Shown one piece after another: positions 29,489-61,205 of a stretch of 64,000 nucleotides of DNA (position 1 is the stretch's first letter; every line of letters starts with the position of its first letter). Source of the DNA: Candidatus Poribacteria bacterium (lineage in GTDB: Bacteria; Poribacteria; WGA-4E; PCPOR2b); contig OZ244587.1 of assembly GCA_965218095.1 (NCBI GenBank), forward strand, positions 5,536,001 to 5,600,000. Reading direction: 5' to 3'. Below the pieces are notes generated by a model. It worked only from the letters and a program-made list of their open reading frames with translations, ran no database searches and was not told the DNA's origin. The position numbers and the translations under genes were made by a program.

Positions 29489-29525
29489 AATATCGAGAAG
29501 TTGCTCGAAAATTAACAGCCCTTGT
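29485..29525 (+). pseudogene. HicA toxin 5' remnant
   Basis: Overlapping ATGA; MKYREVARKLTAL, then a break into attC sequence. Confidence 0.65.
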
Positions 29526-29583
29526 CGGTAAACCCCCGCCGTGCTCGTCCGATTCATCGGACAACTGAGGTTGGTCGTTAGGC
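29525..29583 (+). other. Right arm of an attC carrying a palindromic insertion
   Basis: CCCCCGCC[GTGCTCGTCCGATTCATCGG]ACAACTGAGGTTGGTCGTTAGGC; compare 31385-31417. Confidence 0.65.
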
Positions 29584-29625
29584 GCCAAAAGAGACCATCA
29601 TTGAAAAAGAGGAAATATTTGAAGA

Positions 29626-31077
29626 ATGCCGGTTAACGCTATCCAAGAGATTAAGAGAACCGAAGATACCAGAGATGATATGCTTTTGGGGCAGATAGAG
29701 GAACTCGATAAATCCCTAACCGAATATTTTCCCGATACGCTTGTCGTTGATAATGCTTTGACCAGAAAACTGGTCAGTTTCCAAGCCAATAAAGCCCGTA
29801 CACACTATAGATGGTACAAATACAAAGAGGCATTTTCTGCTGATTTAGTGGAATATCTTTTCCGCAAGTATAATGTAATAAAAGGTAAAATACTGGAGCC
29901 TTTTGCGGGTGCGGGGACCGCTTTATTTGCCTGTTCCTCTTTGGGTTATCACTCTGAAGGTATTGAAGTATTACCGATTGGGCAAAAAATCATAAGAGCA
30001 AATGTGCTCGCTAGAGGTGCGAATAAACAGAGCATTGTTTCTGGATTAGAAAGCTGGTTACTTCAAAAGCCTTGGAAGGCCGAAGGTGAAATTAAGGATT
30101 TTGAAGTGCTTCGTATAACCGATGGCGCGTATCCTCAAAAAACACACCACAAAATCGGAAGGTATCTAAATGAGTTGGAGGGTGAACCTCCAGAAACAAA
30201 AGAGATATTACTGTTTGCCCTGTTATGCATTCTGGAGCCGATAAGCTATACAAGGAAAGATGGGCAGTACCTCCGATGGGATTACAGATCTGGACGCAGA
30301 AATGGTAAAAACACCTTTGACAAAGGAAAGATTTTGCCATTCGATGAAGCCATTGTAGAAAAGCTAAACGAAATAAAAGATGATATTAACCTTGGGGATG
30401 GCAAGGACGATCTATTCTCATTTATGCAGGAGGATATACAGGCAGGCGATGTGAATTTATTAAAAGGGTCATGTTTAGAGGTTCTTCCGAAATTGGAAAG
30501 CAGGGCTTATTCTGGGATAATTACATCACCACCCTACTGCAATCGTTATGATTATACACGCACTTATGCCTTAGAACATGCACTGCTTGGGGTTGATGAA
30601 ATTGGGTTAGCGGGCTTGCGGCAAGCGATGTTAAGCTGCACGGTAGAAAACAAAGCGAAAGCACTGATTGACCTAAATCCCGAATGGCAAACGGCTATAG
30701 GCATTTGTGATGGCTTACCTTTATTGCAGGGGGTATTGAACTATTTGGATTACAAAAGAGATAAAAAAGAACTCAATAACAGTGGAATTACTCGTATGGT
30801 GAGAGGTTATTTTTATGAGATGGCTTGCGTTATCCAAGAATGTTACAGGGTATTGGATAAAGGCGGCATGATGTTCATGGTTAATGACAATGTTAGGTAT
30901 GCTGGGACTGCAATATCTGTAGATACAATCCTCTCAAAAATAGCTGAAGACATTGGATTTCAAATAGAAAATATCCTTGTTCTGCCTCAAGGTAAGGGGA
31001 ATAGCTCCCAACAAATGGGTAAGCACGGACGCGAAGCACTAAGAAAATGTGTCTATGTATGGAAAAAGGATCAATAA
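29626..31077 (+). CDS. N4-cytosine DNA methyltransferase (M.AvaI/M.BsoBI-like)
   Basis: EPFAGAGT motif I, TSPPY catalytic motif, KGNSSQQMG; AT-rich; adjacent to a BsoBI-like fragment. Confidence 0.88.
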   Translation: MPVNAIQEIKRTEDTRDDMLLGQIEELDKSLTEYFPDTLVVDNALTRKLVSFQANKARTHYRWYKYKEAFSADLVEYLFRKYNVIKGKILEPFAGAGTALFACSSLGYHSEGIEVLPIGQKIIRANVLARGANKQSIVSGLESWLLQKPWKAEGEIKDFEVLRITDGAYPQKTHHKIGRYLNELEGEPPETKEILLFALLCILEPISYTRKDGQYLRWDYRSGRRNGKNTFDKGKILPFDEAIVEKLNEIKDDINLGDGKDDLFSFMQEDIQAGDVNLLKGSCLEVLPKLESRAYSGIITSPPYCNRYDYTRTYALEHALLGVDEIGLAGLRQAMLSCTVENKAKALIDLNPEWQTAIGICDGLPLLQGVLNYLDYKRDKKELNNSGITRMVRGYFYEMACVIQECYRVLDKGGMMFMVNDNVRYAGTAISVDTILSKIAEDIGFQIENILVLPQGKGNSSQQMGKHGREALRKCVYVWKKDQ

Positions 31078-31167
31078 ATGCCGTTTAATAACCACCTGAA
31101 ATCGTACGAAAATTTAATTACTCCCTATGAGGAGACGCGGGCAGGATTTATTTCCTTTATGCTTTAA
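31078..31167 (+). pseudogene. AvaI/BsoBI-family restriction endonuclease 5' remnant
   Basis: MPFNNHLKSYENLITPYEETRAGFISF resembles the BsoBI N-terminus as recalled. Confidence 0.75.
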
Positions 31168-31289
31168 TAGAACAAACACCGATGAAGGCACTCACATACT
31201 GAATCAAAACCTCTGCTATTCTAAACGGCGAAAAATGGGTCAATGAGTGGCTGGCAACATGCAATTGATTCAAAGTATCCAGTGAACGC

Positions 31290-31417
31290 ACCTAACCAGC
31301 TGTTGCAGTTGACGGCGGGGCACTGTGGTTTTATGACTGTTTTTGGTTTGTGGCGGGGTTTGGTTGTCGGATGTGTTTCGGCAACCCCCCGCCACAACTG
31401 AACTTGGGGCGTTGGGC
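31290..31417 (+). other. Integron attC site
   Basis: ACCTAAC...GTTGGGC; GTT(G)CAGTTG(A)CGGCGGGG pairs with CCCCGCCACAACTGAAC. Confidence 0.8.
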
Positions 31418-31502
31418 ATACACGGTCAATCAGATGTCTTTAATTCAGGAAACGGGGTTTTCCTTGCCACAACACTTAGCTGAGGGCTGGTTTATAATTG
31501 TT

Positions 31503-32744
31503 TTGAAAAGATTTATCACTTTTCACTTATGGGTTGCAATCCTGATCTCGATTCTCAGCGCCGATCTCGCGGAGCCACAGAAGAATTCTCTGAGTGTCGT
31601 CGGCGCGTTGAGCGGCGAGACCGACAAGGGATTCGCTCGCGCCTTTGAGCCAATGACACTTCAGTTTCCACACGATCACGGCCCACATCCAGGCTATAAA
31701 ACCGAGTGGTGGTATTATACCGGCAACCTGCGGACTGATAGTGGTCAAGATTTCGATACGCCCCGCTACGCGAGGGCAGAGCCTGCCCCGATTCATCGAA
31801 TCTCTTCTGCTACTCAATCCAAGGATTTTGGCTATCAACTTACCTTTTTCCGCTTCGCCCTAACACCTCAAATGCCAGAGCGGATTTCAAATCTTGCCAC
31901 GAACCAGATTTACATGGCCCACTTTGCCCTGACAGATGCAGCACACAGTCAGTATTTCTGCTTTGAACGCTTTAGCCGGGGAGCTGGCGAACTGGCAGGA
32001 GCGACAGGAGAGCCAACGTATGAAGTCTGGCTGGAGAATTGGTCAGCTAAAGAAGTAGAGCCGGGCGTAGTACGCTTGCAGGCAGTGGACGATCAAATGG
32101 AACCACAAACAGCAATTGATCTGACGCTGCGAGAGACACACCTACCGATACTGCATGGCAACCGTGGTTTAAGCCAGAAAGGTCCAGAGCCGGGCAACGC
32201 CAATTACTACTATAGTCTCGTACAGTTGGAGACAATTGGCGACATCACGAGCAATGGCAAAACGATGACAGTTAGCGGGCTCAGTTGGATGGACCATGAG
32301 TTTGGCACCAGCGCCCTCGCGGAAAGGGTGGTGGGTTGGGACTGGTTCAGCTTACAGTTGGAGAACGGTGCTGCGCTGATGCTGTACTGCCTTCGCCAAT
32401 CCGATCAGTCATACGCTCCGCACACTTTTGAAGGCACTCTGGTATACCCTGATGGGCGGCAGTTGCGTATCGGGATGGCGGATTTCACGCTGACCCCCAG
32501 GGGCAAGTGGACCAGTCCGAAAAGTGGCGCCGCCTATCCCTCCGGCTGGCACGTCGTCTTTCCCGAATTAAACATTGATTTGCAGATCGAACCCCTCATC
32601 CCGAATCAGGAGTTTCACATTAGCTTTACGTATTGGGAAGGCGCTGTACGGGTCAGTGGACAGATGGACAGCGTAACAGTCAGCGGTCGAGGATATGCTG
32701 AGTTAACTGGCTACAGTGATTCATCAGGTCAGTATCTGAGGTGA
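31503..32744 (+). CDS. Secreted AttH/CrtC lipocalin-like protein with an in-frame REP insertion
   Basis: [39 protein letters not shown]. Confidence 0.88.
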
Positions 32745-32794
32745 ATTCTACGCACGAAGTTTAACGAAAAAACTCGTGTGAGGAGGAAGAAAAG

Positions 32795-35557
32795 ATGCAT
32801 AAACCGAATCAATGTTGGATGATTGTGTATTCTATTTTCATCTCATTCATTATCCTTTACAATGCGCATACCTGGGCGCAGCAGTCCACGCCAGCTAAAA
32901 CTGATGAAGAAATGATAGAAGATTTTGCAAAACGCGCGACAGCCGGGCTCAAAGGAAAGGTAATTTGGGAAGGGCAAGACCTATCGCGGACAACTGTACA
33001 AATTTATAAGGATAAGAATCTGAAAAACCTTTACACGGGCGTCACACAGTTAAAAGGGGGTGAATTTGAAATTCGCGTTGAGTCGGGGAGTTACTACCTT
33101 GTCGCCTTTGTGGATTTGAATCGCTCCGACAAATTTGATAGCGGTGACGGTATGGGCATCTTTGGTATCACGGATTGGAATGATCCAAACCAACAAAAAC
33201 AGCTCGTTAAGGTTGCGGAGCGGCAGACGATTAGGAGGCTTGAGATTATCATCACCGCAAGAATGCAGAAGGTTGATGGAAGGGATCAAATTGTTTCAGT
33301 ACATAACTACCAAGAAAATCCACTTGAACGGTTCAAGACAGAACTGGCAAGGATTTCCTCCGGCATTAAGGGGCAATTGACCGATGAACGACATGAATCG
33401 TTCACGCGCGCACTTGTCTTTGCCTACACAGATCTTTCTTGGAAATACCGGGCGGGAAAGGCGCAGGTTGAGGCAGATGGCAGCTTTACGCTCAACCTGT
33501 TACCAGGGAAGTATTATTTGATGGCAATCATTGATGAAAACAACACAAATCTTTTTGATCCTGGGGATGAACTCGGTATCTACGGCATCGCAGATCTGCG
33601 CGATCGTCAGGCATTTCCCCAGCCTGTGCTGGTTAAGCGTAACCAATTTACCCAGGACATCCCGATCACCATCGTGGGAACACAACTCAAAAATGGGAGA
33701 ATCATTGCGTTGGATGAACGCACGGTAGAGATTGAAACTGCTGGCACCAGAACAGCAGAGATTTCTGGCCAAGTGAGATGGAAAGGGCATTCGCTGAAAG
33801 GAAGCGTTATCCAGATTTACCGGGACGCGACTTTGCTAAAAGAGATTGATCAGGTTGCGGTGGACGAAAATGGGAAATTTAATCTTCAACTCTCGCCGGG
33901 GGATTACTATTTGATAGCAAACGTTGATGCGGACAGCGATGGTAGATACAGCCCGGGCGATGGGCTTGGCGGGTATGGAACCGCGGACATCACCACCACG
34001 CCTCCATCGGCATTGACCTTAGTAGCAGGTACCAACCCCAAAATCCAAATTTTTGTGAGCGCCCGGTACAACGCGGATGGGCAGCTTGAAGCGGTTGCGG
34101 AAGGTGTGATCGACCTTCACCAGGATAGCGGTAGCGGCATTGCCGGGCAGATTCAGTACGCTGGAAAAGAATTTAAGGAGGGGATGATCTCAATTTCGGA
34201 AACGCCTGACTTTCAGTCACCGGTTGCGATCTCCTTAAATCTGGAGGTGGATGGACGCTATGAGGTGTCCATCCCGCCAGGAGATTACTACGTCATGGCG
34301 GTTGTCGATCTCGATGGCGATCGGAAGGCTGGCTTGCGAGATGGGGTTGGGTTTTATGGCACACGGCGCCCTGTGCGAGGCAAGCCACAACAGGTCTCTG
34401 TGTTTGCGGAGCATATTACGCTGCACATCGATATTGAAATCTTCGCGATATACATTGATGTGGAGGGTAACATTGCTGAAATCGAGGATGGAGGCCGTTC
34501 AGAAATCAAACTGCGGTATGGAGAGCCAGAAGACGTTTTTACGTTTACCCGCTTTGGACGCCAGATCGAGGAGTGGTGGTACTGGACACAAGGGGTTAGC
34601 TTCAAATTTGAAGCCAATGGCGCTGGGTGGAAATTGCAAAACCGCAAAGATTTTGAACCGAAGGCGGTTGACTCCGAGCAGTTAAAACAGCTTGAGCAGG
34701 AGTTTGAACAATCTGATAATCAAACAGCCGGTGAAGCCCGAGACACACAACCCGAATCGGAAGCGACGCCGCTAAATGTCCTGATCTACTACAGCTATGA
34801 TGACGTCATCTGGGGGTATGCCCCAACAGGGATACAACAGCCGTTGGGAGCGGGAACACAACCAACCGCGTCGCTGGATGGTAGACTCACCTATCTAGAC
34901 CTCGAAGGAAATGTCGTCGTCCACAATTCAGATGACCCAGAGGGAAGGCTGCTGCTTGATAGGCGTGAATTGACATCGGATGTGATGATCTCTCCTGACG
35001 GTGCATACCTTGCGTTTGCTAGGCGGAGTATGGATCGACGGCGCATCTATATTCGACATATTTCGAGTCAAGAAGAATTCCTCGTGCCTTCGACAGCTCA
35101 AGAAATGTTTACACCTGCATGGAATCCGAGCGGAGAATTGCTGGCATACGGCACAAGGGGAAGCGTCGAAAATCCAGAGGACCGTGAAGATTGGAATATC
35201 TACGGATATGATCAGGTGAGTGGACGAGTTGAACCTATCTGCATCGGTCCAGAAGATGATGCGGAGCCAGCATGGTCTCCGACAGATCCGAATCTGCTGG
35301 CTTTTTCACGCGCAGAAGGACGGCATCGCCAGATCTGGATTGTCAGGTTCAGCCCGGAGGGAGAACCGAGCGAGGGACAATTGACCCGCTACGGCGGCGA
35401 AAAACCGGTGTGGCTGCCTGATGGCTCAACAATTCTCTATGAAAACAACGGTCAGCTTTGGCTCATTTCAACAGACGGGTCAGAAAACCGGCCGGTGATG
35501 GTCAAGGACAGGGTGCTTTTTGGATACGAGCCATATGTGATCCCTTTGATTCCGTGA
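32795..35557 (+). CDS. Large secreted protein: four Ig-like Ca-loop domains plus TolB/PD40 propeller
   Basis: Signal peptide; four YYL..DxDxDG-like..GD repeats; PAWSP and PVWLPDG repeats. Confidence 0.8.
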   Translation: MHKPNQCWMIVYSIFISFIILYNAHTWAQQSTPAKTDEEMIEDFAKRATAGLKGKVIWEGQDLSRTTVQIYKDKNLKNLYTGVTQLKGGEFEIRVESGSYYLVAFVDLNRSDKFDSGDGMGIFGITDWNDPNQQKQLVKVAERQTIRRLEIIITARMQKVDGRDQIVSVHNYQENPLERFKTELARISSGIKGQLTDERHESFTRALVFAYTDLSWKYRAGKAQVEADGSFTLNLLPGKYYLMAIIDENNTNLFDPGDELGIYGIADLRDRQAFPQPVLVKRNQFTQDIPITIVGTQLKNGRIIALDERTVEIETAGTRTAEISGQVRWKGHSLKGSVIQIYRDATLLKEIDQVAVDENGKFNLQLSPGDYYLIANVDADSDGRYSPGDGLGGYGTADITTTPPSALTLVAGTNPKIQIFVSARYNADGQLEAVAEGVIDLHQDSGSGIAGQIQYAGKEFKEGMISISETPDFQSPVAISLNLEVDGRYEVSIPPGDYYVMAVVDLDGDRKAGLRDGVGFYGTRRPVRGKPQQVSVFAEHITLHIDIEIFAIYIDVEGNIAEIEDGGRSEIKLRYGEPEDVFTFTRFGRQIEEWWYWTQGVSFKFEANGAGWKLQNRKDFEPKAVDSEQLKQLEQEFEQSDNQTAGEARDTQPESEATPLNVLIYYSYDDVIWGYAPTGIQQPLGAGTQPTASLDGRLTYLDLEGNVVVHNSDDPEGRLLLDRRELTSDVMISPDGAYLAFARRSMDRRRIYIRHISSQEEFLVPSTAQEMFTPAWNPSGELLAYGTRGSVENPEDREDWNIYGYDQVSGRVEPICIGPEDDAEPAWSPTDPNLLAFSRAEGRHRQIWIVRFSPEGEPSEGQLTRYGGEKPVWLPDGSTILYENNGQLWLISTDGSENRPVMVKDRVLFGYEPYVIPLIP

Positions 35558-35786
35558 TGCGTGGAACGAAGAATTCTTTATTGGAAATTTAGCACTTACC
35601 GTTCGCGTTATTCCAAAGGTAAAAGTTGAATTAATCGTCCCGGTCCCTTTGACGCATCTTAAGAACGGCATTTTGGTCTGAAAATGGTGTGTTGACGGAT
35701 TTCAACCTACTATATCTTTGTGGGTTAGCCGTTCTCTACGTAAACACCACAGCTGCAGAATCGCAAGTCCCATGTGATTATTCTCC

Positions 35787-35907
35787 GGCTAACGGACTGT
35801 GTTTCGGCCGGGCCAGCGCAGACCTCAATCACAGTTTGCCCCAAAGGGCATAAAACGACCAGAATAAAAACTGAGTTCAGGACGTCGGCTGCAAACGCTT
35901 GTTGGGT
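35787..35907 (-). other. Integron attC site, isolated
   Basis: Minus strand ACCCAAC-AAGCG-TTTGCAGCCGAC...CGGCCGAAAC...GTTAGCC, followed by GGAG and ATG. Confidence 0.75.
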
Positions 35908-36199
35908 TGTATAGCCTCGTATTGCAAATCATGCTGCGAAAACTGGCTTGACAGGAGCGGAACAGACGTCAATGCGCATTGAAGAGCTGAAACGTCGACT
36001 CTAAGCAGGCTAACTCGTACACGACCATTCGGAAAAGTGGTAGCGAGGGGGCGTGGGAGCGGGAAAGAATGACCCTCACATACTCACCCCCTCTGTGGTT
36101 TGACAAGCCCCCGATGAAGTATCGGGAGCAATATGTGCCGAAAAGTCACTAACTGTCTGCTGCCAAACCACTTTTTTCAGTCAACCAGGGAGGTTGTTT

Positions 36200-37345
36200 G
36201 TGAAAATAAAGCACATTGAAGCCATCCCCTTAGTTCGTGAATTAGAAGACATTTTCCAGGGTGGCACCTATAAAATTACCAGCCGCAACACGATCGTCAC
36301 CCGCGTTGAATTGGATAACGGCATCGTCGGCGAAACCTTTGGTGGTGACGAAGACCAGTACAATTTCGATGTCTGCCGCGTGGTTAATGAGATCTACCGT
36401 CCGCTGCTGATCGGTGGAGATGTACGTGACGTTGAAGCACACTGGCAGCGGATGTGGAACATCAGGGTGGACTTGAACAATCGGGGCATTCATAGCCTCG
36501 ATTTAGCCAAGCATTGTGTCCTTACCCAGGCCATTGCGGCGGTAGATATCGCGCTCTGGGATGCCCTCGGCAAATTGCTTCAACAGCCGGTGTATAAATT
36601 GCTAGGTGGGTATTGGGATCAGGTGCGGGTAATCGCCATCGGCGGTTATGTCATGCAAGGGGGAAGCATCACCGATCTGAAAAGCGAAATTGAATATTAC
36701 AAAGCGCAGCAGGTCCTCGGCATGAAATTAAAAGTCGGCAGCCTGTCAGTCGAAGAAGACATTGAACGTGCACGCCTCGCCCGCAAAATCGGCGGACCAG
36801 ATTTTCATCTCTGCACCGATTCCAACCAGGCATGGACAGTAGATGAGGCGATGGAATTTGCCCGCAGCGTCCAGGAGCTCAACCTGGCCTGGCTGGAAGA
36901 GCCTGTGTCTTGGTACGAGCAGATTGATGGCAACGCCCGCCTTCGCACGCTCGGTATCCCCATCAACGCGGGCCAGGGCGAAATCTCCCGCCACGGCTGT
37001 AAGGATCTGGTGGTCCGGGGTGCGGTTGATATCCTTAATGTTGATGCGACCATTGCGGGTGGGATTACGGAATGGCGCCGTGCGGCAGGAATGGCAAGTT
37101 GTTTCGGCGTATTGATGGCCCATCATGAGGAGCCGCAGGTCGCCCTGCACCTGCTGGCCGGTGTGGCAAACGGGCTGTGTGTCGAAATTTTCCCCAACTA
37201 TAACCGTGACCCGATGTGGTTTGATCTGCCGGTTCAACAGCCGGAGATCAAGGATGGATACATGCTGCTGCCTGAAAAGCCCGGGCTGGGCATCGATCTG
37301 AATCCGGCGGTCATTGAAAAATGGCGAGCCGATAACTTGACTTAG
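36200..37345 (+). CDS. Mandelate racemase/muconate lactonizing enzyme family protein
   Basis: DIALWD, KLK, DSN, WLEEP, PGLG. Confidence 0.92.
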   Translation: MKIKHIEAIPLVRELEDIFQGGTYKITSRNTIVTRVELDNGIVGETFGGDEDQYNFDVCRVVNEIYRPLLIGGDVRDVEAHWQRMWNIRVDLNNRGIHSLDLAKHCVLTQAIAAVDIALWDALGKLLQQPVYKLLGGYWDQVRVIAIGGYVMQGGSITDLKSEIEYYKAQQVLGMKLKVGSLSVEEDIERARLARKIGGPDFHLCTDSNQAWTVDEAMEFARSVQELNLAWLEEPVSWYEQIDGNARLRTLGIPINAGQGEISRHGCKDLVVRGAVDILNVDATIAGGITEWRRAAGMASCFGVLMAHHEEPQVALHLLAGVANGLCVEIFPNYNRDPMWFDLPVQQPEIKDGYMLLPEKPGLGIDLNPAVIEKWRADNLT

Positions 37346-37381
37346 ATTAAAAGAGCTCATCGGCGGATCCACTGCTGGCCT

Positions 37382-37459
37382 GCCCCCCCCGGCTCCCCAA
37401 TGCCGGGGGAGAATTGCACAAACTCCCCCGATCCATCGGGGAATTGGGGGACGGGGGGC
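37382..37459. repeat. GC-rich REP-like palindrome
   Basis: GCCCCCC...GGGGGGC containing CCCCGATCCATCGGGG. Confidence 0.55.
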
Positions 37460-37581
37460 GAATGTAACAAAGTCAAGATAAGTAATAACCCGAATTACGA
37501 CCTTTCACGCAATTGGCCCGTTTTCATTGACGGATGCCTCAGAATCCAATGCGGTGGGAAGGAAGAATCGAGGAGAAAATC

Positions 37582-38592
37582 ATGAAAACCAAAATTCTAG
37601 GCCGAACCGGACTGGAGGTGTCCATTGTGGGACTGGGGGCCGCATTCATTGGTATTCCCACGCCCAATCAAGCTGCGGTTGAATACCCGGAAGATTACCG
37701 TAGCGTTCGCCCGGGCGAATCCCGCACCAGTTGCACCAGTTATATGGACGAAGACCTTGGCGTACAAACTGTCCATGCCGCCATAGAGGCTGGGTGTACC
37801 CTCATTGACACTGCGCCCCTTTATGGGGGAACCCAGAGCGAAAAAATAATCGGTCGTGCCCTGAAGGAGCGCCCCGATCTGGCCGCTAAGTGCATTGTCA
37901 CCACCAAGGTAGGGCAACTCACGATGGACAGCCGGGATTATCGCTTTGACGCAATCCTGCGCGATGTAGAAGCTAGCCAGGAACGTCTGGGCGTCGAACA
38001 GTTTGAAGTCCTCTACATCCACGACGCCATGGATGTCCCGATGAAGCAGGTGATGGGCAAGGACGGCGCCCTGGGGGCATTACGCAAACTCCAGAACGAG
38101 GGAGTCGTTCGGTTCGTTGGCGCCGCCGCCAACGAACCCAAAACCAATGCGCCCTACATTGAAACCGGGGAATTCGATGCTGCCGTCGTTCCTGAAGCCT
38201 GGAGTCTTCTAAACCAGCTTGCAGCAGAACGCATCCTACCTGCCGCGGAAAGGTACAACGTGGGGCTTGTCGTCGCCACGCCGTTGGAGCGAGGGCTGCT
38301 AGCGACTGGCCCAGTAGCAGGAATCAACTATCTCGCACGAAATTTCAGCCAGGTCTGCCTGGACCACGTCACCAAAATCCAGTCCCCCTGCCGCGACCAC
38401 AACATCCCGATGGCAGCGGCTGCCCTTCAGTGGTGCACCCGCCACCCGCAGATCGCCACCACGATTCCGGGTGCCCGCCTTCCCGACGAAGCCATCGAAA
38501 ACGCCCGTGCGGCTAGCGTCGAAATTCCGGAAGCCTTCTGGGAAGATTTAACGCCCCTGATCCGACATTTTGAAGCAGGGATAGACCGTTAG
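37582..38592 (+). CDS. Aldo/keto reductase
   Basis: LGRTGL, DTAPLYG, TTKVG, YIHD, IPGA. Confidence 0.9.
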   Translation: MKTKILGRTGLEVSIVGLGAAFIGIPTPNQAAVEYPEDYRSVRPGESRTSCTSYMDEDLGVQTVHAAIEAGCTLIDTAPLYGGTQSEKIIGRALKERPDLAAKCIVTTKVGQLTMDSRDYRFDAILRDVEASQERLGVEQFEVLYIHDAMDVPMKQVMGKDGALGALRKLQNEGVVRFVGAAANEPKTNAPYIETGEFDAAVVPEAWSLLNQLAAERILPAAERYNVGLVVATPLERGLLATGPVAGINYLARNFSQVCLDHVTKIQSPCRDHNIPMAAAALQWCTRHPQIATTIPGARLPDEAIENARAASVEIPEAFWEDLTPLIRHFEAGIDR

Positions 38593-38614
38593 GACCGACT
38601 GTCACATCAAATCA

Positions 38615-39445
38615 TCATGGTTTGATAGCTGACGCAAGGATCGCAGGCATTGGAATTGAGACCCTACCACCTTTTTCATAAACTCTGGCGGCGCGACTAA
38701 CAACCGTGCGAACGGCGCGCAATGCTTCACTGGATTGGGCGCGGAGAAGACCTCCGGTACGCGCTGTCGCTTCGTAGAAAGCCGCGAAGAGTTCATCAGG
38801 GGAATCGAGCTGCCAGAGCTGTGCAATCTCCACAATTTGGAGATTCGCAAAGCCAACCTCGAGCAGCGTTCGTTGACTCTCAGCGGGCTCGCTAAAGCGG
38901 AAGAAAGGCGGACCTGGGGGCAAGGGCACGTTGGGGTTGCCGTGTGTCTCAATTGCCTCTAATATAATTTGAAATCCGATAGCCGCTTTGGGGAGCGTCC
39001 ACACTGTAAAGCCGATCTTTCCACCGCAGCGGAGAACGCGACGCGCTTCTGCCAAAGCTTGTTCGGGGCACCCGAAATGTAGTAATCCGAAATTGATGAC
39101 AACCGCATCAAAGCAACCGTTGGAGAAGGGTAATGCCTCTGCATCGCCTGTGCAGAACGCAATGTCTGGGTATTGTTTCCGCGCTTCAGCGAGCATGGCT
39201 TCTGAGAAATCAACGCCGACGACGTGAGCCCCTCGTTGTGCGGCAGCCTGTGCGATGTTGCCCTGTCCGGTTGCGACATCAAGCAAGTGCATACCCCCAT
39301 GTATCTGGACAGTGGATAGAAGTGGCTCCACGGCTTGAATGGTGAGGCGGGTCCAAAAGTTATGGTAAAGTCTGGCGCTTCTTTCCCAGGCGGCATGTTC
39401 AAACGCCCAGAATGGATTGGGTTGAACAGACAGGTTGTTTGCCAT
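38615..39445 (-). CDS. Class I SAM-dependent methyltransferase
   Basis: LDVATGQG, GVDFS, GDAEALPF. Confidence 0.9.
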   Translation of the reverse strand: MANNLSVQPNPFWAFEHAAWERSARLYHNFWTRLTIQAVEPLLSTVQIHGGMHLLDVATGQGNIAQAAAQRGAHVVGVDFSEAMLAEARKQYPDIAFCTGDAEALPFSNGCFDAVVINFGLLHFGCPEQALAEARRVLRCGGKIGFTVWTLPKAAIGFQIILEAIETHGNPNVPLPPGPPFFRFSEPAESQRTLLEVGFANLQIVEIAQLWQLDSPDELFAAFYEATARTGGLLRAQSSEALRAVRTVVSRAARVYEKGGRVSIPMPAILASAIKP

Positions 39446-39477
39446 GCGATCCTCTTCAAGGTTAAGCCACTATGCAC

Positions 39478-39981
39478 TCAGATGCCGGCATCTAAGAACA
39501 TCTGCTTGACAAGTTCTACAGATGTGAGGAGACACGCTTTTCCGATCTCGGTGGTCACGTCGCGCAGATCTTCCCCGCCAACCCCTTCAGGTCAGACCGA
39601 TCTGCCCGCTGCAAGCTGCGAGACATCCACAAGCTCAGGTCGGGGCGCCATCGCGCAAGAGGTCTCATTTCGCGCTGCGTGATCGATCTGGCTCTTCCAG
39701 GGATCACAAAAGTCATTGGTGACACCGAACAGTTATGTCCCATCTGGCTCAAGCCGCAAACGGTCAGGTCTCAGGTGAATGGGAGGCATGACAATCCCGC
39801 CGAGTTGACGAGCGCAAATAACCATCAGACCTTCGCTGATAATCGCATCGGATCCGAATGGCAGATGTTCGCCGTGCTATTCTAGTGTTCCCAACGGCAG
39901 ATGGGCAATGGGTCGTTCGGCTAGCCGTTCCCGAAACTTGTGAGGCAGTAATTCGGCGTAACGCACTTTTTCTTTATCCAT
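39478..39981 (-). pseudogene. Creatininase family pseudogene (not in the ORF track)
   Basis: MDKEKVRYAELLP...LPLGTLE*HGEHLPFGSD and later HAARNETS; stops, frameshifts and an internal deletion. Confidence 0.75.
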
Positions 39982-40085
39982 GCGGATTTTTCCTTCCTTG
40001 AAAATTTACGACGGATTCAGGATTTCACGTAGATTCTGCAAGTAAATATCAAGTGATGACCGAGCGGTTGATTCGCACATGTGCG

Positions 40086-41483
40086 TCACTTTTTCTGCGG
40101 GATGAGATCTAAGCATACCAATCGATCCTTTCCACGGACATACAACAGACCGTTTGAGAGAACCGGCGCCGCCCAGGCTGGGTATTTGATCAGTTTCTCT
40201 CCGCGCTGGTCAGTAATCTGGACGCGAGACATAACGTCCAGTTTTTCAGGCGTGACACGGATGGACATCAACGTGCCGAATTCGCCGAGACTCACGAAGT
40301 ATCCATCCACGTAAAGCAGCGACGACCGTTCATCAATCCGCTCTGACCAGATGACTTTGCCCGTTTGTAGTCTGACACAACGCAGTTCGCATCCGTTGGA
40401 ATGCCGTCCGCTGCAACCGTAGAGATATCCGTTGTCGTGGATGGCTGTGTTCCAGTGCAACTGCATCACTTTGTTCCGACGACCTCGAAGATCCTTCCAT
40501 ACTACCTCGTATCCGCCCGGACGGACTTTCAGCAAAGCACTACCCGGGCCATAAGTCTCGCTGATAAACACCAGATCGCCGACCACGACCGGATTGGAGG
40601 CGTTGACTGATTCTAGCTTTTTAGCTCGCCAGGGATAGTGGAAGTCCACCGCCCCCGTGCGAGGCTCAAAGCCAACCAACCCACCACGTGCAAAAACAAA
40701 ACACCACCGACGGCCATTGATTGTCGCCGGCGTTGGGCTCGCACAACTAGCCAGTTCATCGGCGATCTGGTAGACCACTTCGCCGGTCCATTTGTTAAAG
40801 GCGACGATACCACTGCCGTTTCCCCTGATCCGACCTCCGGAAGCGAGCAGATTCCTGGGGCCGCCCGGTGGTGAGCCGCCAATTTGCACAATCAGCAGTT
40901 CCTCCTCAACCACAGGTGTAGATGCAACACCGAAGAAGTTTTGAACGACGTGAAATTGGGCGGTGGTGTCCACTTTCCACAACTGTTTCCCATCTGACAC
41001 GTTGATACAGTGCAGCATCCCTTCGGCGCCGAAAATGTACACACGGTTTCCATCAACGACCGGGCAGGTTCGCGGGCCATTGTTATAACCGTACATATCT
41101 TCGTAATCGGTCGGATACTCAAATCGCCAAAGTTCATCGCCGGTTTCGCTTTTCATGCAGGTCAAGCGAGCTTTGTCGCCGTGGCGATCAAACAGGAATA
41201 ACCGGCCCCGAGAGATGGTTGGTGCACCGTAGCTGGCGGCGATCTTCTTATGCCAGACGATGGATGGACCTTCTTTGGGCCACGGAATAGGGATGGATTT
41301 CTCAGAGGACTTACTATCTCCGGTTGGACCGAGGAAGCGTGGCCAGTCGCTGCCGGTTTTTCGCGTGCGGAGATCTGGGGCCTGAGCTTCTGCTGTCGAA
41401 CCTTGAACTTCATTCCAACTGACTGCGCCGAGCATAAAAACAAATGCCAGCCGAATGAAAACCATCAATTTCGCCTCCATCAA
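40086..41483 (-). CDS. PQQ-like beta-propeller protein, secreted
   Basis: DWPRFLGP, repeated TG..LW motifs, LYVR. Confidence 0.88.
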   Translation of the reverse strand: MMEAKLMVFIRLAFVFMLGAVSWNEVQGSTAEAQAPDLRTRKTGSDWPRFLGPTGDSKSSEKSIPIPWPKEGPSIVWHKKIAASYGAPTISRGRLFLFDRHGDKARLTCMKSETGDELWRFEYPTDYEDMYGYNNGPRTCPVVDGNRVYIFGAEGMLHCINVSDGKQLWKVDTTAQFHVVQNFFGVASTPVVEEELLIVQIGGSPPGGPRNLLASGGRIRGNGSGIVAFNKWTGEVVYQIADELASCASPTPATINGRRWCFVFARGGLVGFEPRTGAVDFHYPWRAKKLESVNASNPVVVGDLVFISETYGPGSALLKVRPGGYEVVWKDLRGRRNKVMQLHWNTAIHDNGYLYGCSGRHSNGCELRCVRLQTGKVIWSERIDERSSLLYVDGYFVSLGEFGTLMSIRVTPEKLDVMSRVQITDQRGEKLIKYPAWAAPVLSNGLLYVRGKDRLVCLDLIPQKK

Positions 41484-41531
41484 TCATCCCCAAGCGTTAG
41501 CGCTGCATAACAGCGTTTCCATACGCCACAA

Positions 41532-42431
41532 TCAGTCCGATATTTTACGCACAATAATCTCGCCTGAAGTTTTGAGTTTTAAGTACCTCGCAAGGTTGCC
41601 TTGATTGATCGCAACTTCAAAAATCCCACCGCTTCCAAACAGACCAACGTAGTCACCCACGGGAACATCCCCGTAAGCCTTGACATATTCGCAGTGGATT
41701 TTTTGTCTATTGTCAAAATCGACTTCGATCGTTTGTCCCTGTCGTATGTCCAGCGCTGCAAACAGGTCGGAACGTATGTTCGTGATTGCATTTCCGTACT
41801 CGTCAATCACATCGATTTGTCCGACAATCTCGCCATTAGCCACCTTCGCAAATGAGATTGGCAGACGTATATATTCCTTCAAAACCGGCCCCACCTTCTC
41901 AAAAGGAAAACCTTTGGCAAGATACGCAGCAGCAGGCCCGAAAATATCCCGTCCATGAAATGTGCTCGATTGAATCGCCTGACGCATCACTTCTTGGTTT
42001 GTGAGCTCCCGGACCTCCACGACCCCCATCACCTGACCGACCAGTGTCAAAAGCCCATTATCCGGGGCAACGAAATAGTTGCCATTCCTGGTCTTGAGCG
42101 CGATTGGCTTGCGGCTTGTGCCAACTCCCGGGTCTACAACAGCAACGAAAACAGTACCCTGCGGAAACTCTGGAGCCGCTTTAGCGAGGGTATACGCACC
42201 TTCCTGAATATCAAATTTTGAAACCTCGTGCGAGATTTCGTCAATCCTTGCCTGAGGGAAAACCTTATACATCGCACCCTTCATCGCGCCAATGTAAAAA
42301 TCCTTGCCCCCAAAGTCGGTTATCATGATAATCAAACCGTTGGGCTGGTCGCCCATTGTAGACACTGCAAAGCTGGCCACGGTAAAGCATAAAAGCGCCA
42401 CGCAAACACTGTAACAAGGGTATCTCTTCAT
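41532..42431 (-). CDS. DUF62 SAM hydroxide adenosyltransferase (fluorinase/chlorinase family) with a signal-like N-terminus
   Basis: TDFG, VVDPGVG, PDNG, TFHGRD, DEYGN. Confidence 0.9.
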   Translation of the reverse strand: MKRYPCYSVCVALLCFTVASFAVSTMGDQPNGLIIMITDFGGKDFYIGAMKGAMYKVFPQARIDEISHEVSKFDIQEGAYTLAKAAPEFPQGTVFVAVVDPGVGTSRKPIALKTRNGNYFVAPDNGLLTLVGQVMGVVEVRELTNQEVMRQAIQSSTFHGRDIFGPAAAYLAKGFPFEKVGPVLKEYIRLPISFAKVANGEIVGQIDVIDEYGNAITNIRSDLFAALDIRQGQTIEVDFDNRQKIHCEYVKAYGDVPVGDYVGLFGSGGIFEVAINQGNLARYLKLKTSGEIIVRKISD

Positions 42432-42486
42432 TGTATCAAAACTCCTTTCTTACTCCTGAACTGCCCAATTCTAAATTTTCTCTCCT

Positions 42487-43029: not shown

Positions 43030-43057
43030 TTTTCCAGGGTCATTATTTTCAACTTTT

Positions 43058-43187
43058 GAGCGTTGGTCGAGTAGCGGTGGGTTGAGTAGGCACAGTTATA
43101 TCGAAACCTGAAGCCGTATCGAGACCAACGCTCACTTGGTTTCGATACACGCAGTTTATCCCGATCCTCTCGGGGCTACTCAACCGG
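43058..43187. repeat. Cluster of REP-like elements (GGTTTCGATAC...CTACTCAACC family)
   Basis: Nested inverted copies at about 43066-43126 and a direct copy at 43138-43185. Confidence 0.7.
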
Positions 43188-45561: not shown

Positions 45562-45591
45562 CTACACATCAACGAAGGCGGGTAGTAGGTT

Positions 45592-47106: not shown

Positions 47107-47141
47107 CGTGCAACGTGAAGCATGAAAACCCGGAGGTTAAA

Positions 47142-47417: not shown

Positions 47418-47468
47418 AGAAGTTTTCAACTAAACACACCTAGCACAGGTAAAACGTGAAAGGAAACA

Positions 47469-48383
47469 ATGATCGCCGACAAAAAAGCCGCCTACATCGC
47501 CCTCAATTTCGTGCGAGGGGTCGGCCCCAAAATGTTTGAGGCGCTGTTGAGTCGATTTATACAGCCTGAAGCGGTGGTCGCTGCATCAATCGACGAACTC
47601 TGTGCACTCCCGCGATTGACACCGGCGATTGCCGAGGCAATCCACGGCATTGATATTGATGCGGTTGTCGCGGAGCTTACGGCGCTAGAACAAATAGGCA
47701 TTGCAGTTCACACCTTCGATGAAGAGACGTATCCACCCAATCTCCAATTGATTCCAAATCCCCCGCCGATCCTCTTTCAGGCGGGAGAATTCATCGGCGA
47801 TGACACGAAATCGATCGCAATCGTCGGCACACGCAAACCGAGCGCAAATGGGGTAAAGTTGGCACGACAACTCGCAATTGGACTTGCCGAACGTGGATTC
47901 ACCATCGTGAGTGGCCTCGCTCTGGGGATTGATATATCAGCACATCAGGGGGCACTCGAAGCCGGCGGACGGACCCTTGCTGTGCTTGGGTCGGGCATCC
48001 AAGTCATTCATCCCTATCGAAATCAAGGGCTCGCTGAACAGATCCGCCATTCGGGCGCGATTTTCTCCGAAGCCAAGCCGAAGGCACCCCCGACGACCGG
48101 TGCATTGATGAGCCGGGATCGCATCGTCAGCGGGCTTGCGTTGGCAACGATTGTTGTTGAAGTCAGCGATCAGAGTGGAAGCATGGACACCGCCAATCAA
48201 GCCCGAAAACAGGGGCGAAAACTCTTCGCCATTGACAATGAATGTACAGGGAATCAGCGACTCGTTGCACAAGGCGCAGCCTCCATTACAGATCTAACAG
48301 GAGCATCCTTAGATTGGATCGCGGAAGTCACGATGGAAGAAGGTAGGAATGGGCTTGAGTCCCAACAAATGATGCCATTTTGA
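47469..48383 (+). CDS. dprA: DNA-processing protein DprA
   Basis: AIVGTR, VSGLALGID, AHQGAL, RDRIVSGL. Confidence 0.92.
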   Translation: MIADKKAAYIALNFVRGVGPKMFEALLSRFIQPEAVVAASIDELCALPRLTPAIAEAIHGIDIDAVVAELTALEQIGIAVHTFDEETYPPNLQLIPNPPPILFQAGEFIGDDTKSIAIVGTRKPSANGVKLARQLAIGLAERGFTIVSGLALGIDISAHQGALEAGGRTLAVLGSGIQVIHPYRNQGLAEQIRHSGAIFSEAKPKAPPTTGALMSRDRIVSGLALATIVVEVSDQSGSMDTANQARKQGRKLFAIDNECTGNQRLVAQGAASITDLTGASLDWIAEVTMEEGRNGLESQQMMPF

Positions 48384-48469
48384 AAATAGGACGATGGGGA
48401 AAGGAAGAATGGAAGGAAGGCTTCATTTCACGTATCACGCATCACGTTTCACGATTAAGGGGGGGCAAC

Positions 48470-50035
48470 ATGGACAGTGCAACTTTTGCCGCAATTGATG
48501 TCGGATCTAACGCCATGCGGCTGGAAATTGTTGAAGTGAAGGCTGACAGTACTGTTGAGGAGATCTATCAACACCGTGCCCCCGTCCGTCTGGGGCACGA
48601 AGTCTTCTTGACCGGGTTTCTGAGCCAGAATGTCATTGAGAAAGCGATTGAGGCGTTTGGTGAGTTTCGTGAGGTCATTGAGAAGTCGAGGATTCACACG
48701 ACTCGTGCAATTGCAACGAGCGCGACACGCGAAGCCATCAATGGCGATGAGCTGGTAGAGCGTGTCTACAATAGTTCTGGCATTCAATTGGAGCGGATTT
48801 CCGGCGGCGACGAGGCGCGTCTCGTCCAACTTGCTGTGACTCGCAAGATCGACCTCCGTGACAAGATTGTCCTTGTCATCGACATCGGAGGGGGAAGCGT
48901 TGAGTTCGACGTCATTGATCGCGGTTCAATTGTCTACTCCAACAGTCTGCGGCTGGGAACCGTGAGGTTGCATGAAACCTTCCTCCGAACGGATGCCGTT
49001 TCTGATCTACAGATTTTGTTGCTCAAGGCATACATGGAGCAACTCCTTGAAACAACATTGGACGCCATCAACGCACACGAAATTGACCTAGTGCTCGGTA
49101 CGGGCGGGAATGTCGAAGAGCTCGGGAGACAGATCGGGGTGAATGCAGAAAAGGAAAGCTTTCCAGAAGATGTCCCCTTCATTCCGCTACGGGATTTCCA
49201 GGTCTTCGCCAGAGAGATTTCCAGATTGAGCGTGAAGGAGCGGATGGATCGTTACGACATGCGACCGGATCGGGCAGATGTCATTTTACCCGCGAGTCTC
49301 GTCCTCACCGAAGTGGTGAGCAACATTGTCGGTGCGAGAGGGCTTTATGCTGCGAATGTTGGACTCAAGGATGGCGTGCTAGTGGAGATGGTCGATCGCT
49401 TCCGAAACTCATGGGACGTGACTTCGGAGGAAGCGGAGATCATCAAAGCGGCGACGGCGCTCGGACATAAATACCGCTTCCATTTGGGACACGCTGAACA
49501 GGTTTGTTATTTGACAGAGTTGCTATTTAATCAACTGCAACCACTCCATCAGTTGTTTTCAGAGTTACGGATGCTGCTGCGTGTTGCCGCGACACTCCAC
49601 GAAATTGGCGGGTATGTCAACCCATCTTCACACCATAAACATTCCTACTACTTGATACGGAATTCGGAAATTGTTGGACTGAATGAAAAACAACTTGAAC
49701 TGATTGCCAATATTGCCCGTTATCATCGCAAGGCATTTCCCGACCTACAGAAACATCTTCATTTTCAAGAGCTCTCGCACGCTGAAAGGGAACAAGTGAC
49801 CAAACTCGCTGCCATTTTGCGCGTCGCTGATGCATTAGATCATCAACATAAATCAATTGTCGAAGGTCTGAAAGTCAAGATTCTGGATGACGCAATTGAA
49901 ATTGATGTTAAATCTCTTGACAAGTGTCTGTTAGAAAGATGGCATCTTCAAGAGAAGGGGCAATTGTTCACGCATACATTTGGACGTTCCATTCGCCTGC
50001 TGGTGAATGGGAAAACCGGCGAAGAGATTGACTAA
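48470..50035 (+). CDS. ppx: Ppx/GppA exopolyphosphatase with HD domain
   Basis: AIDVGSN, ATSATREA, DIGGGSVE, HHKHSYY, ARYHR. Confidence 0.92.
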   Translation: MDSATFAAIDVGSNAMRLEIVEVKADSTVEEIYQHRAPVRLGHEVFLTGFLSQNVIEKAIEAFGEFREVIEKSRIHTTRAIATSATREAINGDELVERVYNSSGIQLERISGGDEARLVQLAVTRKIDLRDKIVLVIDIGGGSVEFDVIDRGSIVYSNSLRLGTVRLHETFLRTDAVSDLQILLLKAYMEQLLETTLDAINAHEIDLVLGTGGNVEELGRQIGVNAEKESFPEDVPFIPLRDFQVFAREISRLSVKERMDRYDMRPDRADVILPASLVLTEVVSNIVGARGLYAANVGLKDGVLVEMVDRFRNSWDVTSEEAEIIKAATALGHKYRFHLGHAEQVCYLTELLFNQLQPLHQLFSELRMLLRVAATLHEIGGYVNPSSHHKHSYYLIRNSEIVGLNEKQLELIANIARYHRKAFPDLQKHLHFQELSHAEREQVTKLAAILRVADALDHQHKSIVEGLKVKILDDAIEIDVKSLDKCLLERWHLQEKGQLFTHTFGRSIRLLVNGKTGEEID

Positions 50036-59119: not shown

Positions 59120-59188
59120 CTCGGCAATGTTCCGACTGATGGTTGGGGTTGGTAGGGTCTTGTTCTCTTTTTCTACTCTTCAAAGGCA

Positions 59189-61136
59189 CTATGTATCAGA
59201 TTCGTTAATCTTATTGTAGATATCAGTACCCATGGAAACCAATTTCTCACGGATTTCGGGCCAATCGTCCCGGTCATTTTTGCCTTTGTTAAGGACCGGG
59301 AATTTAACTTTCGTATACTGGGACGTGTCTGTATTTTTGTAATTGTAATCTGGTTTTGAAAATAACTCCATGACCTCGTCTCTACGTTCTGTAGAATTTG
59401 CCTCGTAGAAGTACAATTCAATATAGCATTTCCGCTTAGTAAGCACCAGATATACTTCTATATCATCACGTATAGTCTTACCTAGCCAACCTCCCTTATA
59501 GACAAATACAGATTTTCTGGCAAATAGTTCACCTAGTTTACCTTGGATGATCGGTTCCCAGAATTCGTTGTATTCAAGGTCGGTTTGCCTCTCGGTTTGA
59601 ATATCTATTGCGGGCCGAACTACCTGATGAAAGGATAGCTCTTTGTGTACATTGGCTTGTGCTTGAATTAGATGAGGGGTGTGCATAAATATAGTTGACA
59701 TAATCAAGCCAAAAGGGTTTCCTATTGTTATCATAGCAAAAGGAGCCCCAATATGGTACAAAGACCAATGTTGGCTGATTATGTCACTCTTATTATGCAA
59801 CTCTTTGAGCAGTTTATGCAACACCGTATTGACAAACCAGGTGTCACACACGCAAAACCATTGACATATTCAACCACCTCGTTTATCATTTTCTTCATGT
59901 TGATGCAGTTTCACGGCATCTATGGCTTCAAAACGCAATGGCGGTGGCTAATCAATCACCCAGAAGTGTTACAAATGCTGGGGTGGCAACAGCCCCCTCA
60001 TCGAACCACGATTGCACGTCGCTATAAGGCATTATATGAAGTGATAGAGGCATTTGTATTGTTTATCGGTCAGTATGCCACTGACTTGTCCCAACAATTC
60101 AACTTGGCTCATCTGGTAGCCGACAAAAGTTTATTTAAGGCACGAGGACCCGTCTGGCATCAAACTGACCGCAAAGCAGGAAAAGCACCTAAACATCTAC
60201 GCAACCTCGACACCGATGCCACGTGGAGCAAGAGTGGTTATCATGGCTGGGTCTATGGCTACGGACTTCACATTATCTGCACACAAGGTGCGTTCCCAAC
60301 ACTGATAACTGTGCACCGTGCGTCGGTCTCCGAAAGTTGGGCGATAGATGCTAAAGCGTCTGAGATTCTGACACAACTTTCACCGCAGACACTCACTGCC
60401 GATGATGCCTATACCCAAGCAGACCGTATCCGTCGTTGGGCGAAGGCACAAGTCGCTTTGATTACCCCGGCACTTAGATGGACAAAGGGACGGTTTGCCA
60501 AGGCGTATCATCGATTTATCAACCAACCCAAGCAGCGTCTCTGTTTAAGCAAACGTCGCAGTTCGGTTGAACCGTTGTTTGACTTGATTGCTAAAGTGAT
60601 AGGCACCACTCCTCAACAGAAGCAGTTACCGGTCAAGGGGTTTTTCAATGTACGCTGTTGTTTAGCTATCGGGGTGTTATCAGTGCAAGTGGCTATGATT
60701 GCCAATGCCATATGGAAGTTACCTGCTCGCAATATCTCTCATATGGCGGCTGTTTTCCAATGAACTACTATGCACACCCCTCAATTAGATACCAACCAAT
60801 TTCGCTGTCTTCATTGCGTAGATTACACGTGGTGATCATAAGGTCCTCAAAATCTTCAGCGACCAGCACAGCCACTGTGGCTTCCTTCAACCGTGCGTAG
60901 GCTTCAAGCCTGCCCCAGTGATCCCAATTCGCTGTGCCAAACTGATTTTCGACCACGAGTACGCCATCCTCTCCGACAGCGATAATATCCGCCTTACGCC
61001 TACCGACATTGGATTCCGTTTCTGGGTCTTCAAACTTACCGACGTTAAGTGCATTGAGCGTATCGGCGAGATCTGCCGAGAAATCTTCTTCCCGTTTATA
61101 GATGGATGAGAGTGAGATTGATTTTTGAAGTTTCAT
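59189..61136 (-). pseudogene. PD-(D/E)xK-like nuclease plus DUF4268-like protein split by an IS
   Basis: EEDFS, ADI, VENQF, DHWG; rejoins in frame as GWYLI|QAQANVHK once the IS and one TSD are removed. Confidence 0.78.
59674..60782 (+). mobile_element. DDE insertion sequence, IS982-like (transposase 59768-60763)
   Basis: TIR GAGGGGTGTGCATA / TATGCACACCCCTC, perfect 8-bp TSD AATTAGAT, WVYGYGLH and RSSVE motifs. Confidence 0.88.
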
Positions 61137-61147
61137 TTGACTCTCCT

Positions 61148-61205
61148 GTACAACGCCCAAGCTTAGTTATCCGATGAATTGGACGAGCAGGGCAGGAGTT
61201 TCCAA
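61148..61205 (-). other. Right arm of an attC carrying a palindromic insertion
   Basis: Minus strand CTCCTGCC[CTGCTCGTCCAATTCATCGG]ATAACTAAGCTTGGGCGTTGTAC, then AGGAG and ATG. Confidence 0.55.

Follow-up and report, generated by a model that had tools for sequence, protein, structure and literature searches.

A 20-nt hairpin unit present or absent at fixed points of attC-like sites in Candidatus Poribacteria, with copies dispersed elsewhere in the genome

Introduction

The attC sites of integrons are defined by their fold and not by their sequence, and the variable top of the folded site, known as the variable terminal structure (VTS), is commonly regarded as neutral filler. According to PMC2727003, the VTS may be as small as three nucleotides or form a branched structure, and recombination changed by less than 2.5-fold when three bases took the place of the 65-bp VTS of the Vibrio cholerae repeat (VCR). 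Folded attC DNA is also a recognized target of mobile DNA, since group IIC-attC introns and IS1111-attC insertion sequences are reported to insert at defined attC positions (PMC3001079, PMC11187229). Among very small dispersed elements, repetitive extragenic palindromes (REPs) have been described nested in other palindromes, as have CGTC-tagged REPs without a dedicated flanking transposase (PMC3733652). Here we analyze a 20-nt palindromic module that occurs in two attC-like arms within a 64,000-nt stretch of the Candidatus Poribacteria bacterium assembly GCA_965218095.1 (contig OZ244587.1, positions 5,536,001 to 5,600,000 of the forward strand, hereafter the window), which is part of a single 6.35-Mb contig of 50% G+C (genome G000, the source genome). 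A first-pass annotation, made from the letters of the window, had proposed that the module is a micro-element inserted at the same position of both arms, that it targets folded single-stranded DNA and may inactivate or fix cassettes, or else that it marks an unrecognized attC subclass.

Results

The two modules, and a third arm that lacks them, were found as that annotation had described them. At site 1, on the plus strand, the module GTGCTCGTCCGATTCATCGG (29541-29560) is preceded by CCCCCGCC and followed by ACAACTGAGGTTGGTCGTTAGGC, which provides the L' side (ACAACTGAG..), with the R' box GTTAGGC at 29577-29583. At site 2, on the minus strand, the module CTGCTCGTCCAATTCATCGG (61171-61190) lies between CCTGCC and ATAACTAAGCTTGGGCGTTGT (ATAACTAAG..GCGTTGT). 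In both cases the surrounding arm is attC-like, with the CCCGCC stem on one side of the module and the L' box (ACAACTGAAC) on the other, and the plus-strand arm at 31387-31417 presents the junction CCCCGCC^ACAACTGAAC..GTTGGGC with the module absent (^ denotes the insertion point). Two copies of the 18-mer GCTCGTCCRATTCATCGG are present in the window, against an expectation of 0.13, and two matches were obtained in 0 of 100 shuffles.

Genome-wide, the module recurs as a unit of ~20-22 nt, composed of an unpaired head (TGCTC) and a hairpin of 6-7 bp, GTCCGA(T)-loop-(A)TCGGA, with a head/stem junction that reads CGTC in every copy and overlaps the stem. A search for variants of the module revealed seven copies of the exact 18-mer, 140 occurrences of GTGCTCGTCCG with at most one mismatch, many of them followed by a hairpin, and 50 copies matching a stricter pattern for the general unit, ~40 of which lie outside attC sites. 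Conservation outside the unit is limited to C.GT before GCTCG and to C after TCGGA, the flanks being otherwise unrelated; inside it, GCTCGTCCG and CGGAC, the outer half-sites, do not vary, whereas the centre differs in length by 3-7 nt. The loops of the 50 copies are GAA (23), TCCCA (8), TTCA (6) and others. In combination with this head, the TTCA loop is restricted to attC sites (6/6), and the 16-nt TTCA-type hairpin also accompanies another head in a different composite repeat, in at least three of its copies. Intergenic positions predominate among copies of the unit, with 37 of 49 falling outside open reading frames (ORFs) of at least 150 amino acids, though such ORFs span 77% of the genome. 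Their orientation relative to genes, as read from the table of copies, is mixed (~12 copies in sense, 6 in antisense and 8 placed between convergent genes), and the unit is often found within other hairpins. Furthermore, 11 of the 37 non-attC copies present GTAG up to 16 nt upstream or CTAC up to 14 nt downstream (GTAG in five, CTAC in seven, both in one), and one 42-nt form of this GTAG/CTAC type is common to G000 and to G001, a genome of another genus in the same family, with 91-97% identity. We consider it an even call that the block seen in the window belongs, as one type of copy, to a lineage-specific repeat family whose dispersed members are very small.

The host of the module is itself a dispersed repeat of 125-150 nt. 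A profile built from six full copies matched the genome 32 times with nhmmer (E <1e-4), and the hits were then aligned with hmmalign. The family consensus reads GCCTAAC - 5 nt - GTTGCAGTTG-A-CGGCGGG - ~90 nt - CCCCGCC-G-(block)-CAACTGAAC - 7 nt - GTTAGG, in which GCCTAAC and GTTAGG correspond to the inverted core sites RYYYAAC (R'') and GTTRRRY (R'). In the alignments, GTT[G]CAGTTG[A]CGGCGGG on the 5' arm pairs with CCCGCCG-CAACTG-AAC on the 3' arm (L''/L'), leaving two bases of the R''-L'' arm extrahelical, with 6 bp between them, and the central spacers CAGTC and TTTGTTC unpaired. On the top strand the first extrahelical base is G (C on the bottom strand), a departure from the usual attC site, for which an extrahelical G on the bottom strand is reported (PMC2727003). 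ORFs begin ~20 nt past the GTTAG of family sites, and sites form clusters of three to four at genome positions 370379-373862 (four within 3.5 kb) and 5240034-5245836. No Rfam family matched the five attC sites tested, at E values up to 1. On these sequence features we accept the host as the putative attC family of a decayed, scattered integron.

The best hit to the integrase gene intI in the source genome scores 216 bits, below the cut-off of 265, and contains seven stops; an N-terminal and a C-terminal fragment are also present. Every intI gene of this genome is broken, and the integron is defunct. The N-terminal fragment (1055430-1055824, minus strand) lies ~0.9 kb from the attC site at 1056720 (plus strand), in the divergent layout expected of an integron. 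The 5' half of another attC site, at 2744972-2745251, is fused directly to a C-terminal intI fragment (model positions 238-313), in what looks like a recombination or deletion scar. Among the relatives, G006 has an intact intI (505.8 bits), and no attC site of the family was found on the 14.9-kb contig that bears it.

Within the attC family, the block is present or absent at a fixed insertion point, CCG^C, which faces the second extrahelical base. Among the 32 aligned hits, the 3' junction reads CCGCC-G-CAACTGAAC or is identical but for the inserted block, and hand curation of ~30 members yielded ~16 filled sites, at least 12 empty ones and two short forms with only the hairpin; these counts are approximate, being hand-picked from noisy loose regular-expression censuses and the profile alignment. 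When TGCTCG...CGGA (20 nt) is excised from a filled 3' arm, what remains reads exactly CCGCCG^CAACTG; excision is exact on either arm, and no filled attC site presents a target duplication. Most copies have C-N-G as their left flank and C as their right flank, bases that may belong to the unit itself. A mirror copy is found on the 5' arm as GTTGACGG^[TCCGA...CGAGCA]^CGGGG, which again reads CCG^C on the unit's own strand. G001 has 12 such copies, 6 of 29 attC rows from public records carry one, and G000 has a single site filled on the 5' arm only, at 4724951. In double-armed sites, the two copies are able to pair together and extend the stem. In short sites of 58-59 nt (G000 4730520 and 2044937, and locus L030), a headless hairpin makes up the entire VTS; these forms could be explained if a deletion had run from one palindromic hairpin to the other in a two-armed site.

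Other blocks are found in the same sites. A 24-nt block, composed of the head CTTCTTAGT and a CCCGAT..ATCGGGG hairpin, lies inside L'' (GTTGCAGT^TGAC) of some attC sites of G000 (373758 and 1616945), G001, G013 and named public records (loci L023, L026, L043 and L053); of its eight copies in G000, two are in attC sites and six outside. In some attC sites a CCCGAT..ATCGGGGCAGGCT unit is located immediately before the head of the unit. The 17 metagenome contigs with the family junction comprise 12 empty sites, four filled sites and one in which that point is taken by a different 30-nt hairpin, and the empty form looks like the base state of the family. Predicted DNA folding energies for a filled site, at ~-24 kcal/mol (top strand) and ~-22 kcal/mol (bottom strand), are close to those for the empty window site (-24 and -21). 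In the predicted top-strand fold of the filled site, the 5' half of the block pairs with the TCGGACG of the top structure, and on the bottom strand the complements pair likewise. An origin of the block as a copy of this nearby VTS stretch, with which it shares seven nucleotides, was set aside because it cannot account for the non-attC copies.

To place the unit among relatives, we performed an exact-pattern census over 41 genomes, in all of which the reversed-pattern control returned no match. The pattern is found 33 times in G000, 131 times in G001, where the copies of the unit are put at ~140, five times in G005 and once in each of four genomes of a third genus; there was no match in the 16 genomes from three other families of the order. 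Hairpins that adjoin the L' box, that is, filled 3' junctions, number 10 in G000, 18 in G001, 10 in G006 and one in G013, and empty junctions by exact pattern number four, eight and five in G000, G001 and G006, respectively. Filled sites are present in at least four genera, and filled and empty sites together in at least three, with an apical hairpin sequence that is specific to each genus. The same filled attC site also occurs in public records of Candidatus Poribacteria: 29 of 31 retrieved stretches are attC-like, and the other two are chance matches in coding DNA of other phyla. Loci L045 (a Caldithrix sp. record) and L050 (a Candidatus Poribacteria record) are identical over ~200 nt around a filled attC remnant, which could reflect mis-binning or recent transfer.

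Returning to the window, both filled arms are remnants without a full pair of core sites. Site 1 belongs to an attC-family 3' remnant of ~59 nt (29525-29583, plus strand) that consists of the 3' side of the VTS, the CCCCCGCC stem, the module, the L' box, the spacer and R'; its 5' arm is missing, R' is its only core site, and its nhmmer alignment is confined to model positions 119-186. The module coordinates given above follow the register of the first-pass annotation; in the CCG^C register the module spans 29542-29561, and its hairpin, GTCCGAT-TC-ATCGGAC, spans 29547-29562. Site 2 lies in a degenerate attC-family 3' part (61148-61230, minus strand; nhmmer model positions 100-179, E 6.8e-11) whose R'-like end, GCGTTGT, no longer matches GTTRRRY; its module has two mismatches to the copy of site 1, and its stem contains one mismatch and one wobble pair. 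The empty site is full-length (31290-31417, plus strand), with R'' ACCTAAC, L'' GTTGCAGTTG, a long VTS, its junction at 31393/31394 and R' GTTGGGC. Between the site 1 remnant and this empty site lies a DNA methylase ORF of 483 amino acids (29626-31077, plus strand; PF01555, 36.8 bits, E 5.2e-9), in a cassette-like layout.

Upstream, the site 1 remnant abuts a truncated small ORF at ~29524. This ORF starts at 29485 and retains only its ~13 first codons, being broken off where the remnant begins; its start may resemble that of a HicA toxin. Within the same stretch (29240-29524) it is preceded by a HicB-like antitoxin ORF (PF15919, 29.1 bits), and after 29524 contigs of one public run diverge from the window sequence. 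The second remnant is flanked by a DDE transposase ORF (PF01609; 59753-60763) and by a gene for a 673-amino-acid leucine-rich-repeat/dockerin protein (61893-63914). The summed contig depth of four public runs rises several-fold above neighbouring bins at 29168-31168 and 47844-48500, and these regions therefore probably have paralogs or are present in several organisms. A highly repeated sequence of G000, with identical 65-nt stretches in dozens of copies (for example at 47846, 351571 and 556020), is probably the end of an insertion sequence.

The first-pass annotation had also noted that CCGAT-N-ATCGG hairpins recur near 31787, 36110, 37428 and 43160, mostly inside other hairpins. These hairpins exist, and they belong to another family, CCCGAT-loop-ATCGGG, which is separate and much larger, has varied heads and tails and lacks the GTGCTC head; many of its copies lie within longer palindromes or composite repeats of ~100 nt. 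Two of the four are clearly nested: the hairpin at 36107-36129 (plus strand) in a 10-nt inverted repeat, and CCCCGATCCATCGGGG at 37424-37451 (plus strand) in imperfect inverted arms of ~20 nt. The hairpin at 43161-43176 adjoins another hairpin without lying inside it, and that at 31783-31800 is degenerate. In the genome as a whole, CCGAT-loop-ATCGG is the most over-represented hairpin with a 5-bp stem, with 271 occurrences where the mean per stem is 20.7. Contig joints of public runs at 31730/31830 and 37386/37440 excise stretches with CCCGAT hairpins; their short sides measure 24 and 37 letters, so that they may come from paralogs.

Discussion

These analyses establish that the unit has sharp ends, occupies fixed points on either arm of the attC site, leaves filled and empty sites side by side and varies patchily in copy number across genera. 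The account that we favor, at roughly even confidence, is that a micro-repeat resembling REPs or small dispersed repeats (SDRs) entered the attC family as a block, nested in its variable top, and then travelled with the family. Entry would proceed through a site-specific process, probably on single-stranded or hairpin DNA, modelled on what has been proposed for REP elements and for the ends of IS200/IS605, and the unit would afterwards spread along with the attC family. A copy in one arm would fold as a side hairpin, making the base of the VTS a three-way junction, and a copy together with its mirror copy would lengthen the stem by ~16 bp. By analogy with the VTS-replacement experiments, the integrase should tolerate the block, because it lies above the L stem, where sites vary, and replacement of the VCR top had little effect.

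The micro-element proposed by the first-pass annotation is borne out in so far as the block is discrete, sharp-ended, present or absent among paralogous attC sites and found in many unrelated places. It is preferred here over an oddity of a single arm because the block is discrete, present or absent, and recurrent elsewhere. Independent insertion of the two window copies did not hold up: both have the loop variant that, with this head, is exclusive to attC sites, and for that reason we read them as inherited. From their sequences they look like relics passed on with the attC family rather than separate insertions. Targeting of folded single-stranded DNA stays conjectural, with neither a link to an enzyme nor a replication-strand bias. 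The cassettes of the source genome are already fixed by broken integrases and truncated arms, and the idea that the module inactivates or fixes them found no support. A more far-reaching version, which we judge unlikely, holds that a 20-nt non-coding unit, smaller than any element of demonstrated mobility, is mobilized in this candidate phylum by an unrecognized enzyme and inserts without duplication at CNG^C in folded single-stranded DNA; it would repeatedly have entered either attC arm, remodelling the top and yielding new minimal attC sites of ~58 nt by recombination of two palindromic copies.

Filled and empty states were compared among paralogous attC sites and in metagenome contigs. In favor of entry as a block, a tree of 44 attC cores, computed without the block columns, places filled and empty sites among one another, and genomes likewise, so that filling does not track the relatedness of attC sites. 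The near-paralogous pair at 2738636 (plus strand) and 2755772 (minus strand), which also shares 30 nt upstream, differs by the block, and inspection of the sequences revealed no microhomology at the ends that would favor a slippage deletion of exactly 20 nt. Empty junctions are of three kinds (G^C, GT^A and A^C), separated by single transitions, and therefore provide no information on the direction of change. Among metagenome contigs, there were 0 matches to the exact flank pattern of site 1 as alleles of that site, and public contigs from four runs in three studies, which cover 28501-48500 patchily and with rare variants dropped, showed no 20-nt change at 29541-29561 or at 31393/31394, a result that carries no weight as to absence.

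Several results weigh against entry as a mobile block. With ~125 columns, the tree of attC cores is a weak basis. The five outer pairs of the hairpin are nearly invariant and the sixth covaries (CG in 7 rows, UG in 5, AU in 4 and UA in 2, the remaining 5 of 23 rows being an alignment artefact of longer loops), a pattern that fits structural selection as well as mobility. Because the TTCA form, with this head, is restricted to attC sites, most attC copies in the genome derive from one filled ancestor and not from repeated insertion. The unit flanks none of the four Y1_Tnp genes in G000 and none of the five in G001 (within 1.5 kb), and its copies show no replication-strand bias (25 against 24), with a weak GC skew that makes the origin call unsure. 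One unit lies ~430 nt from one of the G000 Y1_Tnp genes. The other three, at 626507-626836, 3422249-3422581 and 6008932-6009297, have their own hairpin repeats on both sides (TTGGCGGGGCA..TGCCCCGCCAA, AGAAACCGAGTTTT..AAAACTCGGTTTCT and GGTGGGGC..GCCCCACC, respectively), a REPtron-like arrangement with repeats unrelated to the block studied here. No clean orthologous empty site was found for a non-attC copy in the one syntenic spacer compared: in the spacer between convergent genes at 3618300, the unit is missing from G005, G006 and G002, but the spacer cannot be aligned. Non-attC copies are likewise without empty paralogs in the genome, most of their contexts being unique; the BLAST scan for such paralogs also missed known empty attC sites, whose right flank is too short to align.

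The main rival account is that the hairpin is native to the attC family and defines an attC subclass, the ancestor having been double-armed, with the one-armed, empty and hairpin-only forms produced by loss or recombination and the dispersed copies constituting a related REP family with a hairpin in common. We regard this as possible, though on the unlikely side. It accords with the presence of filled attC sites in four or more genera, with apical sequences that differ from genus to genus, with the covariation of the hairpin and with G006, where 10 of 13 units are in attC sites, a distribution that also tells against entry from outside. Double-armed sites exist whose copies pair together as an extension of the L stem, and the 58-59-nt sites match exactly what a deletion between double-armed hairpins would produce. 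As a description, the subclass suggested by the first-pass annotation therefore stands, but it leaves the ~40 non-attC copies unexplained: there the unit, head included, keeps its sharp ends in flanks unlike those of attC sites. Empty sites, moreover, dominate the metagenome contigs (12/17), repeated loss of an identical 20 nt without flanking microhomology is unlikely, and by exact pattern the 5'-arm copy is found in G001 only, among 25 genomes.

A different alternative, which we think decidedly improbable, is that the unit is a selected functional motif, either a hairpin bound by a protein or an RNA element for mRNA stability or processing, that arose in place or was recruited and is not mobile. 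Its invariant outer half-sites around a centre of variable length suggest hairpin recognition, its copies are mainly intergenic, and RNA-level roles are often proposed for REPs (PMC3733652). Against this, the orientation of the copies to neighbouring genes is mixed, copy number jumps between genera (0, 5, 33 and 131) in a manner unexpected for a conserved regulatory motif, and ~50 independent origins of a motif with a 5-nt asymmetric head are implausible. As for the two window copies taken by themselves, chance resemblance or recent local duplication has almost no credibility left, with nothing but the 18-20 nt in common to speak for it. Chance is contradicted by the shuffles and by the genome-wide copies; duplication, which the first-pass annotation had named as a possible refutation, is contradicted by flanks that are only ~70-75% alike over 60 nt and by the alignment of both copies to the same dispersed family.

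On the account of a micro-repeat that entered as a block, the top of the attC site in this lineage is assembled from discrete hairpin blocks that also reside elsewhere in the genome, and a single attC family displays empty, one-armed, two-armed and hairpin-only forms. If such blocks are mobile, they would offer a route for attC sites to lengthen, shorten and diversify, and a new class would join the few elements known to target attC. The block is, in addition, a lineage marker of the candidate phylum. Since sites that bear insertions are longer and branched, attC finders may miss or split them. We saw no sign of medical relevance.

In the literature searched, which did not extend to the supplements on REP families, we found no published REP-like unit within attC sites and no such repeats in Poribacteria. 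The SDRs of filamentous cyanobacteria (Elhai et al. 2008, Genome Res) are reported to be hairpin-forming units of 21-27 nt that lie in diverse non-coding settings, nested within one another and within larger repeats, and for which mobility was argued from filled and empty sites; they belong to a different phylum and have different sequences, and no clean filled/empty pair was found here beyond the attC family. Like the branched VTS of the VCR type from Vibrio cholerae, the block is positioned above the L stem, in the most variable part of attC sites (PMC2727003); unlike that branch, it is a discrete unit with copies beyond attC sites, differs in presence between sister sites and abuts the position opposite the second extrahelical base. 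The introns and insertion sequences reported to target attC sites are kilobase-sized and encode their own enzymes (PMC3001079, PMC11187229), whereas the unit has 20 nt and is non-coding.

The closest parallels are with REPs, both CGTC- and GTAG-tagged (PMC3733652, and PMC8266576 for TnpAREP), which, as described there, are likewise short and combine an unpaired head with a stem-loop. REPs also resemble the unit in having tens to hundreds of intergenic copies, in their patchy distribution between relatives and in being sometimes nested in palindromes (PMC3733652). With the CGTC-tagged REPs of that account the unit shares the lack of a flanking dedicated transposase. The CGTC at its head/stem junction, which overlaps the stem, and the GTAG or CTAC near 11 of 37 non-attC copies may correspond to the REP tags. 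Its 6-7-bp stem differs from that given for CGTC REPs, which measures 8-9 bp and has A/T in its first positions (PMC3733652). In contrast to REPs, head-to-head dimers are not the rule, no gene for a REP-associated tyrosine transposase (RAYT) is flanked by the unit in G000 or G001, and its recurrent host is the attC site of an integron.

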